Shown here: piece after piece, positions 36,623 through 43,564 of the stretch
How the letters are laid out: each line of letters opens with the position of its first letter
How positions within the stretch are numbered: position 1 is the first letter of the stretch
IMG/VR virus record: IMGVR_UViG_3300021426_003004
Coordinates: 6,973 to 70,972 of that record
Length of the DNA stretch: 64,000 nt
Strand: one strand, 5' to 3'
Source of the DNA: a virus
Taxonomy: Duplodnaviria > Caudoviricetes
Made by a program: the position numbers and the translations under genes
Notes under the pieces: model-generated
Told to the model about the DNA's origin: nothing
Database searches by the model: none
The model's input: the letters and a program-made list of their open reading frames with translations, nothing else

Positions 36623-37897
36623 TCAGGGCATAATATGACGGAAAAGCTGATATACGATCTTTTTCACTTCTGGATCAGCAAAACCGGCATACCGGAACCG
36701 CATGGCATACAGCAAATAAGGGATGATGGCAAAGCAGAGGATTGTCTCGCTGTCAAAGGTAATCTTGGCATCCCCATGAATAATTTCATTACGTACTTTC
36801 TTAATCCGTTCTGCGACCTTTGGTATGTCATAGGTTATTTTATTATACGCGAAGAGTTCCTTAGCTACTTCGCTGATGCAAGGGTCATGATCAGTAAGCG
36901 CGGTTTCCAGCTTCAGCCGTAGCTCTGTTTGTTGCTTCTTGGCAGGGACCCCCTGCAGATATATCTGCTTGTATTCCCATTCGAATGCGCTAGAAAGAAG
37001 CAGGATTCTGCTGGCGGTCATCCGCCGGGAATCTACGCTGCTCTCTGGAATGTGCCACGTATAGATTGTGTTGTCAGATAGCCCTTGCAGGACGCTTTCG
37101 ACTCCGTCTGCTATAAGTTCGATCGGAATCAAAAAATGAAACTTGGTATTCTTATTGTTCTCTGCATGGATTTCGTTCAGCCATGGTGCATCGAAGATTC
37201 CGCTGGAGAAGCGACGTCCTTTATCTGTTTCAGTGTGGATTGTGACATTCCGGACGTTAACATTCTGCCTGTAGCAGAGATACTGAACAAACGCTTTTCC
37301 AATCCTTACGAGTTTCGTTATGATCTCAAAATCCTCAGTTTGCTTGAAGGAGAAGTGCAATACGCTCTGAATTGTTAACGGGTTATCGTCGTGATTGAAA
37401 TGCTGGGCATAATAGCAAACGGCAGAGACATCCACTCCATCACAGGAAAAATGCCAGATTCTGCTTGAATGGTTTTTGCCTACTGAAACTGCGTTGCTGT
37501 GTTCTTCATCAGGTTTGAAATCATAAGAATATGCTTGCCGCACAGGGAAAATGTAATTCAATTCGTCAATCTCAAAGGAGAGTGCGCAGATCCCGGGCTG
37601 GTTGTAATATTGCTTTTGGTATTCGATGAATTGTTGTACTGTCAGGATTTGCTCGTTGTTCCGAAAACTTATATGCCGAACATCAATGAAGGCAATTCGA
37701 TGCCCGTCAGGGAAGCAAGACCCCCAGATGACAGGGATTGTATTGCCATCCAGTATAGCTTTATAAAAATCACCTGTTGGAGTCATTGGCATTGCAGGGT
37801 CAACCGTGCGTTTTTCCCAGATTACCAGTTCATAATCACTAAAGCTGAACAGATACTCTTTTTCCTGATAATTCAGGAAGCCGTTAATCGTTTCCAT
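36623..37897 (-). CDS. ApeA-like HEPN-domain protein (predicted anti-phage RNase)
   Basis: 424 aa; beta-rich N-terminus; LLLSSAFEWEY helix and RNEIIH (RxxxxH) motif near the C-terminus. Confidence 0.7.
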   Translation of the reverse strand: METINGFLNYQEKEYLFSFSDYELVIWEKRTVDPAMPMTPTGDFYKAILDGNTIPVIWGSCFPDGHRIAFIDVRHISFRNNEQILTVQQFIEYQKQYYNQPGICALSFEIDELNYIFPVRQAYSYDFKPDEEHSNAVSVGKNHSSRIWHFSCDGVDVSAVCYYAQHFNHDDNPLTIQSVLHFSFKQTEDFEIITKLVRIGKAFVQYLCYRQNVNVRNVTIHTETDKGRRFSSGIFDAPWLNEIHAENNKNTKFHFLIPIELIADGVESVLQGLSDNTIYTWHIPESSVDSRRMTASRILLLSSAFEWEYKQIYLQGVPAKKQQTELRLKLETALTDHDPCISEVAKELFAYNKITYDIPKVAERIKKVRNEIIHGDAKITFDSETILCFAIIPYLLYAMRFRYAGFADPEVKKIVYQLFRHIMP

Positions 37898-37911: not shown

Positions 37912-39291
37912 TTAAGGGGAAGGTTCAGCGTCCATGATGACGATATATCCTTCTGAAAACTCGCGGAAAGTCTGGTTAACATCGTCAACAACATCATGCA
38001 GTTCTTCGATAAGCACGCCTTCGACATACCGCCGCCGAAGCTCGGGTTTCTCAATCAGAACCCACTTCAGTTGAGAATAAGAATACTTCGCAAACGCGAT
38101 CCACTGTGGGTAATTTATGGCCATCGGATTCTTGGTGAAAAGCACCTTCCCGGCGTTAACTGCTGTTGCCGCAGTGTGGCCGATGAAAAGCATGGTGGCC
38201 AGTTTTGGATGCTTTTCCCTATTCAGCGAGATCGGAATCGAATCTTTTATTGCGTTTCCTTCCTTGATGCGCTTTATGGCATACCCGATCCGGACAATCA
38301 CTTCGGAGATCATGACAGGGATGGACATGGAGCAGAAATGAATAAAATCATAGCCCTCGTAATACATTCCCTGCACGATTTCCGCGATTGTCTGATGCTC
38401 ATCTCCGATATCGCCGAACTGGAATAGATTGAATAGCGCCATGAGGGGTGCCGGTAGCCCCATGTCGGTGTTGATATCGGTTTTCAGATGAAGGAATTGT
38501 TTGGCTATTGCTGCAAACAGGTTTGTTTCTCTGCGATCGGCATACCCCTCCACAACTTGGACGACCAGCTTGCCCTTTTTGTCTATCGTTGTCATGGTGC
38601 CTTTCATAATATCAAGGACGCCAACTATGAATCCAAGCAGTGGATCATGACCAAGTGAAAGCAGACGATGGTAATAAGCGGACAAGCCTTCGACATGTTC
38701 TTGCGTGTGCCGGTTGTCTTGAGCGTCATAAGGCGTCTTACTTTCATGCCTGACCGCCAGCTTATCCATTTCTTCCTTGGGATATTTCTTTTCGAAGTGT
38801 TCTCGTATGTAATCAGCCAGCTTTCCAGCTTTTAGTCCGCCGGGAGTCTTCTTCGGTATGCCAACGAGGAGGATGTCCATTGCTGCGCTGAGAAGACCGG
38901 CAACGACGCTGATGGTAACGTCAATAGCATCAAGCCTATGAACCATATCGTATTCACGGTTCAGTTGCCTGATGGCGAGAGTGTTCTCCGTCAATTCGTC
39001 GGCTGTGAACAGATCCTCCAGTTCGGTATGGGCATAGCAAGCCTGCTCTGCTTCTCTGCAGAGTTCTGCCCAGGAAGGGATGATCATAACCGGTTTCTCA
39101 GACGGAACCGCGATTTCCACCTTTTGCGGAGTGTACCCCAGCGATCGGAGCAGATCTTCCGATTCAGAGATCGATTTATCTACCTCAGCCGTATCCGGAA
39201 AGTGGATTTCCTTCAGCCGGTCGTCCTGATGCTTCAGCACGTCGTTAATCTGCTGTTCGGTTTCAGTATAACGATATTTTCCCATGCTCAT
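37912..39291 (-). CDS. Hypothetical 459-aa protein with YHRLLSLGHDP motif and hydrophobic segments
   Basis: 4-nt overlap with the upstream gene; hydrophobic stretches ISVVAGLLSAAMDILLV and PLLGFIVGVLDI. Confidence 0.8.
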   Translation of the reverse strand: MSMGKYRYTETEQQINDVLKHQDDRLKEIHFPDTAEVDKSISESEDLLRSLGYTPQKVEIAVPSEKPVMIIPSWAELCREAEQACYAHTELEDLFTADELTENTLAIRQLNREYDMVHRLDAIDVTISVVAGLLSAAMDILLVGIPKKTPGGLKAGKLADYIREHFEKKYPKEEMDKLAVRHESKTPYDAQDNRHTQEHVEGLSAYYHRLLSLGHDPLLGFIVGVLDIMKGTMTTIDKKGKLVVQVVEGYADRRETNLFAAIAKQFLHLKTDINTDMGLPAPLMALFNLFQFGDIGDEHQTIAEIVQGMYYEGYDFIHFCSMSIPVMISEVIVRIGYAIKRIKEGNAIKDSIPISLNREKHPKLATMLFIGHTAATAVNAGKVLFTKNPMAINYPQWIAFAKYSYSQLKWVLIEKPELRRRYVEGVLIEELHDVVDDVNQTFREFSEGYIVIMDAEPSP

Positions 39292-40667
39292 TTCCCCAGG
39301 TCTGCTTTCAGGTCATGGATGGCTCTTTGAAGTAAAACATTCAGGCTCTGCAGGTAGTCGATACGTTCCTTTGACGCATCGGCTTCTTCCTTCAGGGCTC
39401 TGATAATTGCCTCGTGTTTTTTGATGGCTTCCTTATACAACCGCTCCTTCTCTTGCTGGAACCTTTGGTTCCTAATGTGCGAAGCAATGCCATAACCTGC
39501 GGCACCAAGTGCAGCAACTGGGGCGGCCAGAACAAAGACTCCTGCTGCCATTCCTCCACCGACAAGAGCTCCAGCTGCCGCCAATGCGGAGGTAATTCCT
39601 GCTGCAGAAAGCCCAACAACGCCTAGCCCATACAAGGCGGCAAAGGAACCAACCCCACCAAGTCCAGCACCAATAACTGCTCCAAGGACATCGGCTATTG
39701 GACTGTCAGCAATTACTCTGTTCTTATCTTCAACAGCAACAGCAGCTTCATTCACGACATTCACTACGTGCTGGAGTGATTCGGTGTTCTTGAAATTGAT
39801 CTCCTTTTTTGAAGATTCTTTTTTATTCTCTCGTTTTACTGTGGAACTCTTTGGCTCTTTGGGACGGAACCCTTTATCTTCAACGATGCCATATTTTTCC
39901 TCGAAGTCCGTAACGATCTGAATCTGATCTGCGTCGAGATACTGTAAAGCCGTTTCTCTGATCTCCGGGGGTATCCCATAGAACGCTTCAGCAATACTGC
40001 CTGCCATAGCGGCAATTGTATCGCTATCGCCGCCAATGGAGATGGCGTTACGGATTGCATCCTCAAAAGAATCTGACTCGAGGAATGCCTGTATTGCCTG
40101 AGGTACGCTTCCCTGGCATGACACATCAAAGCCGTACTTGGCCCGGATAGAGTGAAGGGTAAAGCTCAGCGGATAGTAGTTCTCTTCGATATGCTTCTTT
40201 ATTTCTTCCTTTTTTGCTCCATTCCGTGCCAGATACACTGCAGCAGTGATGGCGCGGGCACCTTTCATTCCTTCAGGGTGATTATGGGTCACTGCCGTAA
40301 CCTTGTCTGACAGGCGGAGGGCGTTTTCTAAGGATGCACCTGCCCATCCACAGGGGGATACTCTCATCCCGGCACCATTGCCCCAGCTGTTATATGGATG
40401 CGGGTCCGAAGAATGAATCCAAGCCAGAAAGCGTCCGCCATATCCGTATGGATATCTTCTCCCCAGGTCTCTCATGGAAATCACAGCGTTTGCGGGCAAT
40501 TGGGACCAATTGTTGCCGCACTTCAGTATTCCCTGCGCGATTGCCAACGTCATGGTGCTGTCGTCGGTTGGTCTGCAGCCCTCTGCAAAAAGCTCAAACG
40601 ATTTGTCCTTGTGATTATCGTGCTCAAATCGTGAACCTACGATATCGCCTATAATTGCACCTAACAC
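39288..40667 (-). CDS. ADP-ribosylglycohydrolase (DraG/ARH) fused to a glycine-zipper TM plus coiled-coil domain
   Basis: GAIIGDIVG, PTDDS, SWGNGAGMR, THNHPEG, GGDSDTIAAMAG; C-terminal GAGLGGVG..AAAGALVGGGMAAG and a charged coil. Confidence 0.88.
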   Translation of the reverse strand: MLGAIIGDIVGSRFEHDNHKDKSFELFAEGCRPTDDSTMTLAIAQGILKCGNNWSQLPANAVISMRDLGRRYPYGYGGRFLAWIHSSDPHPYNSWGNGAGMRVSPCGWAGASLENALRLSDKVTAVTHNHPEGMKGARAITAAVYLARNGAKKEEIKKHIEENYYPLSFTLHSIRAKYGFDVSCQGSVPQAIQAFLESDSFEDAIRNAISIGGDSDTIAAMAGSIAEAFYGIPPEIRETALQYLDADQIQIVTDFEEKYGIVEDKGFRPKEPKSSTVKRENKKESSKKEINFKNTESLQHVVNVVNEAAVAVEDKNRVIADSPIADVLGAVIGAGLGGVGSFAALYGLGVVGLSAAGITSALAAAGALVGGGMAAGVFVLAAPVAALGAAGYGIASHIRNQRFQQEKERLYKEAIKKHEAIIRALKEEADASKERIDYLQSLNVLLQRAIHDLKADLGK

Positions 40668-40669
40668 AG

Positions 40670-42649
40670 TTAATTCTCACCTCCAGCGTTCAGTAGAGCT
40701 AGGAGGCCATTTGCCTCTTCAATGATCTTTTTGATATCGAATGGAGACATGCTGAGGAATTTATGTGGCTCGCCCCACGTAGCGGCTATGGTTTCTGCAG
40801 CGGGTTGAAGCAGATGATAAATTGTATTCTGTGTTTCGGAATCAGAAATGCTCTTAGCGGCATGATAGATGCTCTGGAATGCAGCAGGTTCAGCAAAAAG
40901 GTTTTTCTGGGTTTCAACGGCAAGCTGTGTCATTTCCGCATTGTCCGATCTCAGGGTATAGCACAGCAAAGGCAAAGCAGCACAATGGGACACCTTCAGA
41001 TTGTGCCGTTCCTCTGGTGAATAGCTGGACTGGCCGTGCCACTCTCCATCGTCCTCAAAGTGAAGGTTTGTTAACAGGCAACGCAGAAGCTTGGCTGATT
41101 CATCTGTTTCATTTTTAAGTATGCTGATAATTGCTGCCATTTGCTTCTCGTCCGGGACAGCATGCAATTCCACCAACAGATAGTACAATCCATCGCAGTC
41201 CTGGTGTTTAACGCACTCGTTTATGCTATGGGTCAGGAAGATCTGATACGCACGCTCGTCTTTGAACAGCACACCGACTTTGTAGAACTCAGTCCATGCG
41301 GATGAGTAGCAAGACGTGTTTTCCAAGTGGAAATAGGCCCAATGCGGTATGCAAGGATACCCTTGCTCAACATAGATCTTCATCAGCTTTATATCGCCGG
41401 TGCTCAGAAGCCATCTGACGGTATCCGCATATTGAAAATCCTTTTGATTAAGCTGAGTGAGAATCTTTTTTACGAGAGAAATTTCACCGGACTTATAAAG
41501 GACATCAAGTGCAGTGTCATGCCATGAAACAGTATCCTTATACTTTAGTAGTTTCTTCATGGTTTCCGGGTCAAGGTTTTTAGCTGTTTCATCAATGATA
41601 AAGAACGGTGTGCCAGCATTAAGAAGCTTGAAGGCATAATCTGGCCGATTGGCTCTGAATGCCTGACCAACGAGGTACTCGTTCCAGAAACTTTTAGGAT
41701 TAAAGCCAGATTTCAAGCATAATGCAAAGACCGAGTCAAGGCCGCTGTCAATGACGAAAGACATGATCCCCTGATTCTTTCCATTGACCATAACTGCACG
41801 GTTGACATCAGCGCCGTTCTTCAGCAGGTATTCTGCCATTGCGATATCTTTTCGGCTGATTGCATTAAACAGAGCTTGAACCAGATCATCGGGTTGCAGC
41901 GAAGAACGGGGAATATGACGCAATTCGCGCTGTACCGTTTTAATATCACCATTTTCAGCAGCAAGATTGATAGTCTGAAGTCGGTTGCTCTTTTCTGCAC
42001 CTGTTAGACGACTCTGAGCTTCTGTTACCAGCTGATCGTAATGATAATAGGTTGTGGCATCAACCATAGAGAACAACGCCAATAATGGTTCGGCATCTTC
42101 TGCTTTCAAATACCGTGGATTTGCTTGCCAGAATTCCTTACGGGTCAGGATATCAAGATAGGCATGCGAGATATCAATAGCTTTTGCAATTCGCGCACAG
42201 GAGATGGAGGACTCGTTTCCTTTCTTATCAGCGAAGGTGATGGCTCTTTTCGTAACCTTTGTGACCTTCCATCCGCCCGGCAACTTTTCGCCATCAGCTT
42301 TTTTGATTAGCTGATCCAGTTCTTCTTCTGCTGTGCTGATTGTGCAGAGCGAGAGGGCGCTGGCGAGTTTCTTTTCATCGAAAGGCGTCAGTTCAGCATC
42401 CCGGGTTACCGGTTTTCCGTGGCCCTGTGTAAGGTCGTACACTTTGTAGTACTTCATATCATTTACACGGCCATTTTCGTCAAGGAATACCTGCAGATTC
42501 ACGCGAACGTTGGTATTGTAATTGTCATCATATGGGTAATACCCGTTTCCGGAGAAATACTCCGAAAAATGCTCGTTCGTCTTCCTATAATAAAATGGCG
42601 CGAACCAGCCATCTCCCATTTCAAAAGAAGCCAAGTCCAACTTTGCCAT
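40670..42649 (-). CDS. Ankyrin-repeat-containing protein (659 aa)
   Basis: LAAENGDIKTV, ALFNAISRKDIAMAEYLLKNGADVN and further degenerate repeats. Confidence 0.7.
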   Translation of the reverse strand: MAKLDLASFEMGDGWFAPFYYRKTNEHFSEYFSGNGYYPYDDNYNTNVRVNLQVFLDENGRVNDMKYYKVYDLTQGHGKPVTRDAELTPFDEKKLASALSLCTISTAEEELDQLIKKADGEKLPGGWKVTKVTKRAITFADKKGNESSISCARIAKAIDISHAYLDILTRKEFWQANPRYLKAEDAEPLLALFSMVDATTYYHYDQLVTEAQSRLTGAEKSNRLQTINLAAENGDIKTVQRELRHIPRSSLQPDDLVQALFNAISRKDIAMAEYLLKNGADVNRAVMVNGKNQGIMSFVIDSGLDSVFALCLKSGFNPKSFWNEYLVGQAFRANRPDYAFKLLNAGTPFFIIDETAKNLDPETMKKLLKYKDTVSWHDTALDVLYKSGEISLVKKILTQLNQKDFQYADTVRWLLSTGDIKLMKIYVEQGYPCIPHWAYFHLENTSCYSSAWTEFYKVGVLFKDERAYQIFLTHSINECVKHQDCDGLYYLLVELHAVPDEKQMAAIISILKNETDESAKLLRCLLTNLHFEDDGEWHGQSSYSPEERHNLKVSHCAALPLLCYTLRSDNAEMTQLAVETQKNLFAEPAAFQSIYHAAKSISDSETQNTIYHLLQPAAETIAATWGEPHKFLSMSPFDIKKIIEEANGLLALLNAGGEN

Positions 42650-42683: not shown

Positions 42684-42989
42684 TTAGCTTTTTGGCCCTA
42701 ACTCAGCACGCTGGTTGCTGGCAACATAAGTGGCGATCTGCCGGACATGAGTGTTCAACGTCTTCAGGTCGTCATTCCAGCAGGATTCCTCAACCATAGC
42801 CATAGCATTGCCCATCAGGTAGGATGCAGCTGTGTCTGCTATGACATGGAAGTCCTCCAGCTGTTGTGCCAGTGTGTTTTCCTGATTCTTACCGTAGGTC
42901 TTGTTGATATAAGCCTGGATCTCGTTTGCAGCCAGATCATATATCTTCTCAGCGACGGCAGTCAGTTCTGCTTGATGCTTCTTGGTCAT
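42684..42989 (-). CDS. Hypothetical helical protein (101 aa)
   Basis: RBS GGGAG; 4-nt overlap with the SLOG gene. Confidence 0.65.
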   Translation of the reverse strand: MTKKHQAELTAVAEKIYDLAANEIQAYINKTYGKNQENTLAQQLEDFHVIADTAASYLMGNAMAMVEESCWNDDLKTLNTHVRQIATYVASNQRAELGPKS

Positions 42990-43564
42990 TCTGCGATCTC
43001 CCTTATGCTTTCTGCGATTTCGCCAGGTTCCTCTTCTTTTGACTTCCGTTTTCTTTTGGGTTTTGGTTCATAGTTTGGGTTGTTCGTGATAACTTCAATA
43101 CCTTTACCAACAGCATAGTCAATTGTGTTCTTTGTGCCGCCGGGAGCTCCGTTGAAATATGCAATCACACGGTTGCTGTGATTGACCATCCATTCATTCC
43201 TCTGCTGGAATACTCCCTTGTGATAGTGATTGCAGACGGGTACAACCAGATCGGCATTCTTCAGGAGATCACTGTATTGTACCTGCCAGTCAAGGCTCCA
43301 TCTGTTTGAGAAACCAGGCCACGGGGTTGCTGCGATCAAGTGTAGAGACTGGTTGTCAGCTTTTCGCTGCAGAACAATCTGCCCGGCCCAAATATCAACA
43401 CCCATCGCGCAGCCGGAAATGAAGGTTGTATACCCGGCGGCAATGGCGCTGTCGATCTGCTCCGATAGCCATTTTTTCACATTTTCTTCCGATTCATCCA
43501 GCTTCTCTGGGCGATGGCCGGAGAAGCAGCATCGATGAAGACGCTTTTCCTCTTCCGTTGCCAA
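42986..43564 (-). CDS. SLOG-superfamily (YspA/DUF1273-like) protein
   Basis: CCFSGHRP, FISGCAMGVD, QRNEWMVNHS, GGTKNTIDYA. Confidence 0.88.
   Translation of the reverse strand: MATEEEKRLHRCCFSGHRPEKLDESEENVKKWLSEQIDSAIAAGYTTFISGCAMGVDIWAGQIVLQRKADNQSLHLIAATPWPGFSNRWSLDWQVQYSDLLKNADLVVPVCNHYHKGVFQQRNEWMVNHSNRVIAYFNGAPGGTKNTIDYAVGKGIEVITNNPNYEPKPKRKRKSKEEEPGEIAESIREIAE

Follow-up and report, generated by a model that had tools for sequence, protein, structure and literature searches.

Bunzi is an experimentally reported anti-phage system made of two proteins, BnzA and BnzB (Millman et al. 2022; bioRxiv 10.1101/2022.05.11.491447). BnzA was described as having a TerB domain, two transmembrane (TM) helices and a lipid-interacting domain, and membrane surveillance was proposed (bioRxiv 10.1101/2022.05.11.491447); in the literature that we searched, no mechanism published since Millman et al. 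was found for Bunzi. Another described system, type II Thoeris, relies on ThsA, in which two TM helices are combined with a Macro domain that acts as a receptor and lacks the catalytic Asp, and on its TIR partner ThsB, which makes His-ADPR (10.1101/2024.01.03.573942, PMC11204291). Here we analyzed a stretch of phage DNA of 64,000 nt, hereafter the window (IMG/VR record IMGVR_UViG_3300021426_003004, positions 6,973-70,972), and more precisely two overlapping genes, A and B, the first of which encodes an ADP-ribosylglycohydrolase (ARH) fused to a membrane module. This pair very probably belongs to the Bunzi family. Judging from its sequence, it is a Bunzi relative of a widespread TerB-less clade, where the TerB region of BnzA is replaced by the ARH. 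The parts of the locus are the following:

39288-40667, minus strand: gene A (protein P0001), GTG start, 459 aa, with an ARH head, a linker and a BnzA-type module
37912-39291, minus strand: gene B (protein P0002), BnzB homologue, ATG start, 459 aa, with HRxxSLGHDP and HLxxD motifs
39888-40667, minus strand: gene A residues 1-260, compact ARH head, from PF03747, PHROG 6572 and the predicted local distance difference test (pLDDT)
39795-39887, minus strand: gene A residues 261-291, flexible linker rich in Lys, Glu and Ser, from pLDDT and variation among homologues
39291-39794, minus strand: gene A residues 292-459, BnzA-type membrane module, from PADLOC BnzA, alignment and hydropathy
39288-39291, minus strand: ATGA overlap between the stop of gene A and the start of gene B, read directly from the sequence and indicating translational coupling
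40680-40684, minus strand: GGAGG, a Shine-Dalgarno-like site 12 nt before the GTG of gene A, read directly from the sequence

Gene A starts 2 nt past the stop of the upstream gene, and its homologues begin at the equivalent M-(L/I)-G-A-I-(I/V)-G-D in the alignment. The junction between the two genes reads ...GGGGAAATGAGC..., where the TGA of gene A (39290-39288) and the ATG of gene B (39291-39289) overlap by 4 nt. At other loci, the same junction is likewise overlapping, or the genes are separated by a few nucleotides. The initial annotation of this stretch had described two open reading frames (ORFs), an ARH with TDD and DSDT, a linker, a Gly/Ala-rich hydrophobic stretch, a coiled coil, the overlap and a partner with YHRLLSLGHDP, and we could confirm all of these by ORF analysis, Pfam, structure modelling and direct reading of the sequence.

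Both genes contribute to the family assignment. First, P0002 matches the PADLOC profile of BnzB (PDLC03834) with an E value of 1.9e-63, its residues 10-424 aligning on positions 46-481 of 504, and it has no Pfam, NCBIfam or PHROG family. By BLASTP, P0002 is 26% identical to a canonical BnzB encoded next to a canonical BnzA (E 7e-23) over an alignment that includes the H-x-L-x-S-L-x-H-x-P and H-L-x-x-D blocks. Second, the C-terminus of P0001 is 28% identical to residues 253-420 of canonical BnzA (E 2e-5) and matches the PADLOC profile of BnzA (PDLC03833) with an E value of 2.7e-5 (residues 331-429 on profile positions 314-409 of 544), which is a weak match of biased composition. Relatives that carry this module without any head (headless) match the same profile with an E value of 5e-9 over positions ~310-454. 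Third, canonical Bunzi loci of Bacilli genomes consist of BnzA (563-604 aa, E ~1e-180) followed, after 9 nt, by BnzB (~500 aa, E ~1e-166). Since P0002 is a BnzB homologue and the C-terminus of gene A is a BnzA module, and since both genes stand in the canonical order, the pair reads as a Bunzi relative. The proposal of the initial annotation, that the C-terminal domain and the GHDP protein make up a two-component membrane module, thus stands as far as an autonomous two-gene module is concerned, while the identity of its parts as the BnzA C-terminus and BnzB had gone unrecognized.

We did not find any TerB match in residues 1-260 of P0001, which are wholly occupied by the ARH domain. Given that canonical BnzA, too, had no Pfam match to TerB at E<0.01, the TerB domain of BnzA has to be taken as a remote-homology annotation from the literature. 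The conserved core of Bunzi is the membrane hairpin and coiled coil of BnzA together with BnzB, and not the TerB domain used to describe the family. The TerB-less clade is probably missed by annotation tools, because the BnzA match reaches only 21 bits.

The membrane module is made of a conserved helix (residues 295-313), a glycine-zipper hydrophobic region (residues 318-396, nt 39480-39716) and a coiled-coil helical hairpin (residues 392-457). The Gly/Ala-rich hydrophobic region was defined by hydropathy and is poorly modelled by AlphaFold, and the hairpin corresponds to two long C-terminal helices in the AlphaFold model. From F292 on, the module is near-invariant beneath all heads, while the N-terminal parts are unrelated (alignment A3, with 45 invariant columns and 33 homologues).

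By using P0001 residues 285-459 as query, we retrieved 168 clusters of 252-804 aa. The heads were classified for 121 sequences of at least 252 aa each, that is the 120 matches listed and P0001 itself, and comprised 57 ARH heads and 2 Macro heads, the other 62 having another or no recognizable head. Pfam identified the same module under Macro (E 1e-48), HTH_3 and Sel1 heads. The ARH-fused forms, 452-713 aa long, were found in many metagenomes as well as in complete Streptococcus suis genomes, in which the fused pair adjoins polA at a fixed chromosomal site. The initial annotation had considered that the fusion might be absent from homologues and result from an assembly artefact or a lost stop codon; its recurrence in metagenomes and in complete S. 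suis genomes, together with near-identical phage contigs, rules this out.

The search for stand-alone homologues of the C-terminal module and for their neighbours returned copies that mostly have no head and lie directly upstream of BnzB. The BnzB family itself counts 943 clusters at 50% identity (E<=1e-3). We scanned genomes for BnzB loci with an alignment of 10 closer sequences and kept 80 loci from species-representative genomes. A module gene stands directly upstream of BnzB in all of them (80/80), as well as in 26/27 further viral contigs. These 80 loci belong to Bacillota, Actinomycetota, Bacteroidota and, for one of them, Chloroflexota, with BnzB proteins 56-67% identical and a module gene that is usually ~175-200 aa long and headless. 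Most pairs are therefore headless, and those with an ARH form a derived minority. A quick tree of the C-terminal modules, intended for counting independent ARH fusions, had a backbone without resolution. The pair is carried by 491 plasmid records and 28 IMG/VR records.

Several variants of the pair were met along the way. The IncHI2 plasmid CP090249.1 of E. coli (L022:5250-7140) and 490 other plasmid records encode a 165-aa BnzA-like protein, which shares the glycine-zipper sequence, and a 462-aa BnzB-like protein (~30% identity). On this plasmid (Enterobacteriaceae), the pair adjoins a HipA toxin-antitoxin pair; the plasmids that carry such pairs are conjugative enterobacterial ones and number in the hundreds, and all these proteins are annotated as hypothetical. 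In about a quarter of the loci (L029, L031, L033, L036, L039, L040, L049, L052, L053, L056, L069, L082, L083, L091, L122-L124, L126, L128 and L129), a third gene of ~100-135 aa is found between BnzA and BnzB and matches the C-terminal module of BnzA weakly (E 1e-6 to 1e-12); as read from its sequence, it is a short paralogue of this module that has a coiled coil and a single hydrophobic segment. In Streptococcus phage phi-SsuFJNP8_rum (MN270261.1, L019:4367-5004), BnzB is intact and the upstream BnzA has shrunk to an ORF of 71 aa, of which the last 20 residues correspond to the BnzA C-terminus; this BnzA was probably truncated by an insertion, a Tet(M) element being located just upstream. Finally, DUF4298 is found near two different ARH-fused pairs. 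At L004:567-1694 it is encoded upstream of the pair, in one protein with a nucleoside deoxyribosyltransferase-like domain, and a NUDIX gene comes next; at L006:11147-11434 and L007:4170-4457, BnzB is directly followed by a 95-aa gene that encodes it. DUF4298 may be an accessory component.

As for the head of gene A, residues 1-232 of P0001 correspond to Pfam ADP_ribosyl_GH (PF03747; E 2.4e-34, 119.7 bits against a curated cut-off of 26.2 bits), and residues 1-256 match the phage ARH family PHROG 6572 (E 1.3e-54). The AlphaFold model displays a confident ARH fold, with pLDDT mostly >85. The nearest solved chain is 8za7, Lmo0067 (E 1.2e-11), for which a literature search found nothing. In ARH3 and DraG, the motifs GxxxGDxxGxxxE, (S/T)DD and GGDxDT build the binuclear metal site and provide the catalytic Glu. 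P0001 has E15 (within GDIVGSRFE), T34-D35-D36 and D214-S-D216-T217 at these motifs, and the active-site motifs are kept in 15/16 ARH-fused cluster representatives. By these residues, the head is apparently an active ARH with an intact catalytic site. P0032, a metagenomic ARH-BnzA fusion of 539 aa, has lost D35, D214 and T217 (TGD for TDD and KGKDGV for GGDSDT) and retained the fusion; its head may be a pseudo-enzyme. The head of P0001 is neither DraG nor Tri1, because both NCBIfam equivalogs score far under their cut-offs (E 6.7e-16, 58 vs 337 bits for DraG; E 1.4e-11, 44 vs 490 bits for Tri1). Matches of P0001 to PADLOC LeoBC (E 0.004) and mREase_II (E 0.004) and to Pfam DUF5305 and EIID-AGA were discarded as sub-threshold hits in biased regions. 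Between the head and the module, residues 262-287 form a Lys/Glu/Ser-rich linker with pLDDT <50, disordered in the AlphaFold model. Among the homologues of alignment A3, this linker varies in both length and sequence, with 0 to ~250 extra residues.

Fusion is not the only way by which ADP-ribose hydrolases (erasers) come close to the pair. First, a separate Macro gene ends 12 nt before a headless BnzA in L064, an arrangement also found in three independent assemblies (L030, L127 and L137), and a different Macro gene begins 32 nt after BnzB in L134. Second, at seven loci of the S. mitis group, a stand-alone 284-aa ARH that is 46-50% identical to the fused heads, and thus of the same compact subfamily, is encoded 0.5-2 kb downstream of the pair; these cases probably represent one evolutionary event. 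Third, a different ARH, transcribed divergently, adjoins the headless pair in L009 and L010, which may be a coincidence. The fused Macro is of the MacroD/YmdB type, with intact NAAN and GGGVDG...H motifs. Most pairs have no eraser within 4 kb, and no TIR was found among the genes neighbouring the pair. ARH and Macro, which are unrelated folds of ADP-ribose hydrolases, have thus been repeatedly recruited to the Bunzi core, either fused or as neighbours. Unless there is a functional link, it is hard to account for two unrelated eraser folds that are found fused, upstream or downstream. Neither an ARH head on a Bunzi-type module nor this wider ARH/Macro link was found in the literature searched.

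To complete the description of the pair, P0002 was modelled with AlphaFold2 (pLDDT 93.2, predicted template modelling score 0.84) as a mostly helical protein with a small beta-hairpin region. Foldseek gave no PDB match at E<=0.001 for this model; a wide VIA-align search gave at best a Z score of 8.4 over 100 residues, with a designed helical protein, which is helical-bundle noise; a profile search against PDB sequences returned none below E 0.1; and only unnamed clusters came out of the ESM Atlas. In an alignment of 42 BnzB members, D189, H208, H215, D216, G224, H268, D272, P282 and M309 are invariant, and D121, D124 and D139 near-invariant. From its invariant His/Asp cluster, BnzB may have a metal site or a catalytic centre. 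An HD-like reading of the H...HD...H...D pattern was dropped, since fold support for it was absent. Helix 125-143 is strongly hydrophobic (TM-like) throughout the family and three further helices are moderately so, which suggests that BnzB is membrane-associated.

On these grounds, we favour, at slightly better than even odds for the proposal taken as a whole, that the pair is a Bunzi-family cassette in which a membrane chassis is coupled to an ADP-ribose input head and serves defence. The pair would be an accessory defence cassette of a temperate phage. BnzB and the C-terminal 170 residues of gene A would form the constant, membrane-associated chassis, probably as a stoichiometric complex, given the translational coupling, the universal adjacency of the two genes and their hydrophobic segments. 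The N-terminus of BnzA is an exchangeable head that would be cytoplasmic, here an ARH that would be tethered by its flexible linker to the inner face of the membrane. A cytoplasmic location is expected because there is no signal peptide and because the hydrophobic hairpin would return the C-terminal coiled coil to the same side. As input or regulatory module, the ARH would recognize an ADP-ribosyl mark, or a small molecule derived from ADP-ribose, that arises during the infection; it would probably turn this cue over and couple it to the chassis. Once triggered, the chassis might damage or depolarize the membrane or otherwise arrest the cell, by analogy with other membrane-acting abortive-infection effectors, and the lysogen population would be protected from superinfecting phages. 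In this scheme, the sequence data give the family membership, the modular architecture, the recurrent fusion, the conserved ARH active site, the association with Macro and ARH genes and the phage context, while the complex, its action on the membrane, its role in defence and the way in which signals pass between chassis and head are what we infer. The initial annotation had suggested that the ARH possibly counters or detects phage ADP-ribosyltransferases. The recurrent association with ARH and Macro together with the kept catalytic residues fits such a role and does not separate sensing from erasing.

A further proposal, prompted by the recurrence of erasers with the chassis, is that reversible ADP-ribosylation, or a ligand derived from ADP-ribose, controls the module. 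Invading phages would ADP-ribosylate BnzA/BnzB or a host protein that they guard, and the tethered hydrolase would read or reset the mark. We put this forward tentatively, as a possibility with well under an even chance. If true, it would give a first mechanistic handle on Bunzi, and a defence that senses the activity of a viral post-translational modification and not a viral molecule. In either case, the lead is that ADP-ribosylation or ADP-ribose-derived signals may be the input to, or the target of, a membrane defence module.

Several observations weigh against the cassette with an ADP-ribose input head. First, the likeness to BnzA is weak and lies within a low-complexity Gly/Ala-rich region, and fold and sequence searches found no recognizable enzymatic or pore-forming fold for BnzB. 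Second, a phage-defence phenotype was reported for TerB-type Bunzi only, so that its extension to the clade of this pair would be by analogy. Third, most members of the family are headless, so the basic function does not require the ARH. Fourth, the catalytic residues are retained in the ARH and in the fused Macro, unlike in the Thoeris Macro, which lost its Asp, so that acting purely as a receptor is not the simplest role for the head. Fifth, no TIR_2, ADPrib_exo_Tox or DarT family was detected in the phage record, which is 71% complete. Lastly, the cassette shares its strand with the replication genes of the phage, which bears on its presumed expression in the lysogen.

The rival explanation that best survives turns the ARH head into the output. 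The chassis would then position or activate a membrane-tethered eraser that strips the ADP-ribose marks set early by the phage on nucleic acids or proteins of the host, for instance those left by injected Alt-like transferases, so that takeover is blocked and the cell is not killed. The catalytic and metal-binding residues conserved in 15/16 fused ARH clusters and the intact catalytic motifs of the fused Macro agree with such a role, and membrane tethering would put the enzyme close to the site of DNA or protein injection. However, the headless majority implies that the chassis functions in its own right, the HTH and Sel1 heads are not enzymes, and the P0032 lineage retains the fusion despite the loss of D35, D214 and T217. 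We therefore consider an output eraser unlikely.

Given that DarG reverses DarT and Tri1 reverses Tre1, the hydrolase might also be an antidote. The BnzB chassis would make, or depend on, a toxic ADP-ribose-linked modification, and the ARH or Macro would counteract it in cis or in trans by reversing the basal activity. Antidotes are often placed as these erasers are, that is fused, adjacent upstream, downstream or divergent, and the invariant D189, H208, H215, D216, H268 and D272 point to an enzymatic or metal-binding BnzB. On the other hand, a toxin-antitoxin pair does not account for the majority of pairs, which lack any eraser within 4 kb, D216 is replaced in canonical BnzB (SLAHAP), and the all-helical BnzB shows no likeness to any ADP-ribosyltransferase or NADase, whether in fold or in sequence. 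Such a pair strikes us as quite improbable.

Counter-defence by the phage deserves equally little credit. The ARH would destroy Thoeris-type ADP-ribose signals or reverse DarT- or CmdT-type ADP-ribosylation of phage DNA or RNA, and the membrane part would only localize the enzyme. The same fusion with the same partner nevertheless occurs in bacterial chromosomes outside prophages (S. suis, by polA) and beside CRISPR-Cas, and BnzB is part of a system for which defence of bacteria was reported. Moreover, an ARH acting for the phage has no need for a coupled partner of 459 aa that is 58-67% identical across four phyla. These facts have to be set against the position of the locus in a phage genome, in a unit after the replication genes, and against the stand-alone phage ARHs that make up the PHROG family matched by the head (E 1.3e-54). 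Finally, a non-immune module for membrane maintenance, stress response or lysis timing, mobile by chance, would agree with the absence of a phenotype for the TerB-less clade, with the first ties of TerB-type proteins to stress and tellurite resistance (bioRxiv 10.1101/2022.05.11.491447) and with the fixed chromosomal site in S. suis, but it is very improbable for a pair that shares homology with a validated defence system, that shows enrichment on phages, plasmids and defence islands, and that is distributed patchily by horizontal transfer over Bacillota, Actinomycetota, Bacteroidota and Chloroflexota at ~60% identity.

The defence cassette that we favour is carried by a phage whose record is linear, 70,972 bp long and 71% complete. 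As this record has tail proteins, two large serine integrases and replication genes (family A DNA polymerase and primase/helicase), the phage is considered temperate. The nearest annotated phage with a related pair infects Acutalibacteraceae. In the window, the pair is part of six tightly spaced genes that extend down to 36623 and encode, in this order, a SLOG protein, a 101-aa protein, a 659-aa protein, ARH-BnzA, BnzB and a 424-aa protein. These genes look like a separate transcription unit in the early region of the phage, the start of which is likely marked by the first two of the following features:

43703-43682, minus strand: terminator-like hairpin (9-bp stem with 6 G-C pairs, T run) directly after the DNA polymerase gene, by pattern match only
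43640-43612, minus strand: near-consensus sigma-70-type promoter, GTGACA-17-TATAAT (11/12), before the SLOG gene, by pattern match only
42986-43564, minus strand: 192-aa YpsA-type SLOG protein, from Pfam on a 188-aa homologue in L002; this gene does not travel with the pair
40670-42649, minus strand: P0003, 659 aa, with sub-threshold ankyrin-repeat matches (Ank_2, E 1.3e-4)
36623-37897, minus strand: P0004, 424 aa, with a weak Apea-like HEPN match at residues 302-379 (E 0.0044, below cut-off)

Near-identical phage contigs keep these neighbours, with the YpsA-type SLOG, 101-aa and 659-aa genes upstream and the 424-aa gene downstream. A pair 87% identical to this one has wholly different neighbours, a 73%-identical pair adjoins cas1/cas2/csm6 (type III CRISPR) and an SLFN-type helicase, and at another locus the pair lies next to RelB/YafQ. 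Since the pair travels without its window neighbours, the unit consists of the two genes. We also considered the six genes as an obligatory unit, which is not supported, as the extra genes are absent at the 87%-identical pair and at other fused pairs and as a sister phage does without the pair. This sister phage (IMGVR_UViG_3300028797_005208, L149:556-2622) has the 101-aa and 659-aa genes, the latter 97% identical to P0003, and only the last 23 codons of the 424-aa gene; compared to the window, ARH-BnzA, BnzB and most of P0004 have been lost or gained together through a clean indel. P0004 had no relatives in IMG/VR beyond the near-identical phages. SLOG domains of other systems bind ADP-ribose-type ligands. 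The location of the pair, which adjoins a type I restriction-modification system, makes it one more case of a temperate phage with defence cargo.

Compared to the described Bunzi system, this locus has the same two adjacent, co-oriented genes, a membrane protein in which a hydrophobic hairpin is followed by helices, and a partner of ~450-500 aa that is homologous over its full length. It differs by its head, as the canonical BnzA of 563-604 aa carries an N-terminal TerB where we find an ARH here and Macro, HTH, Sel1 or nothing in relatives. The likeness to BnzA is also limited to ~100-170 residues and weak, and BnzB has 459 aa instead of 502.

With ThsA, the pair shares the presence, on one polypeptide of an anti-phage system, of an ADP-ribose-recognizing domain and a TM helix pair, which makes ThsA a precedent for an ADP-ribose cue gating a membrane effector. 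However, the TM helices of ThsA are N-terminal and its Macro C-terminal, whereas in the Macro-headed relatives of the pair the Macro domain is N-terminal to the TM region and has intact catalytic motifs. In addition, the head of P0001 is an ARH, its partner is BnzB and no TIR was found in the record, which is 71% complete, and we do not claim any homology to ThsA.

The ARH-fold hydrolases of DraG-DraT, Tri1-Tre1 and DarG-DarT, as well as DarG3 of DarHTG (PMC13069673), resemble the head of gene A by their binuclear metal-site motifs. Unlike for these eraser-transferase pairs, no transferase partner was found in the operon or in the 71%-complete phage record. Compared to DraG, Tri1 and ARH3, the ARH of P0001 is much more compact (~260 aa) and is covalently tethered to a membrane hairpin. 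DraG itself is regulated by membrane sequestration, which offers a loose parallel to the tethering of the ARH in gene A.

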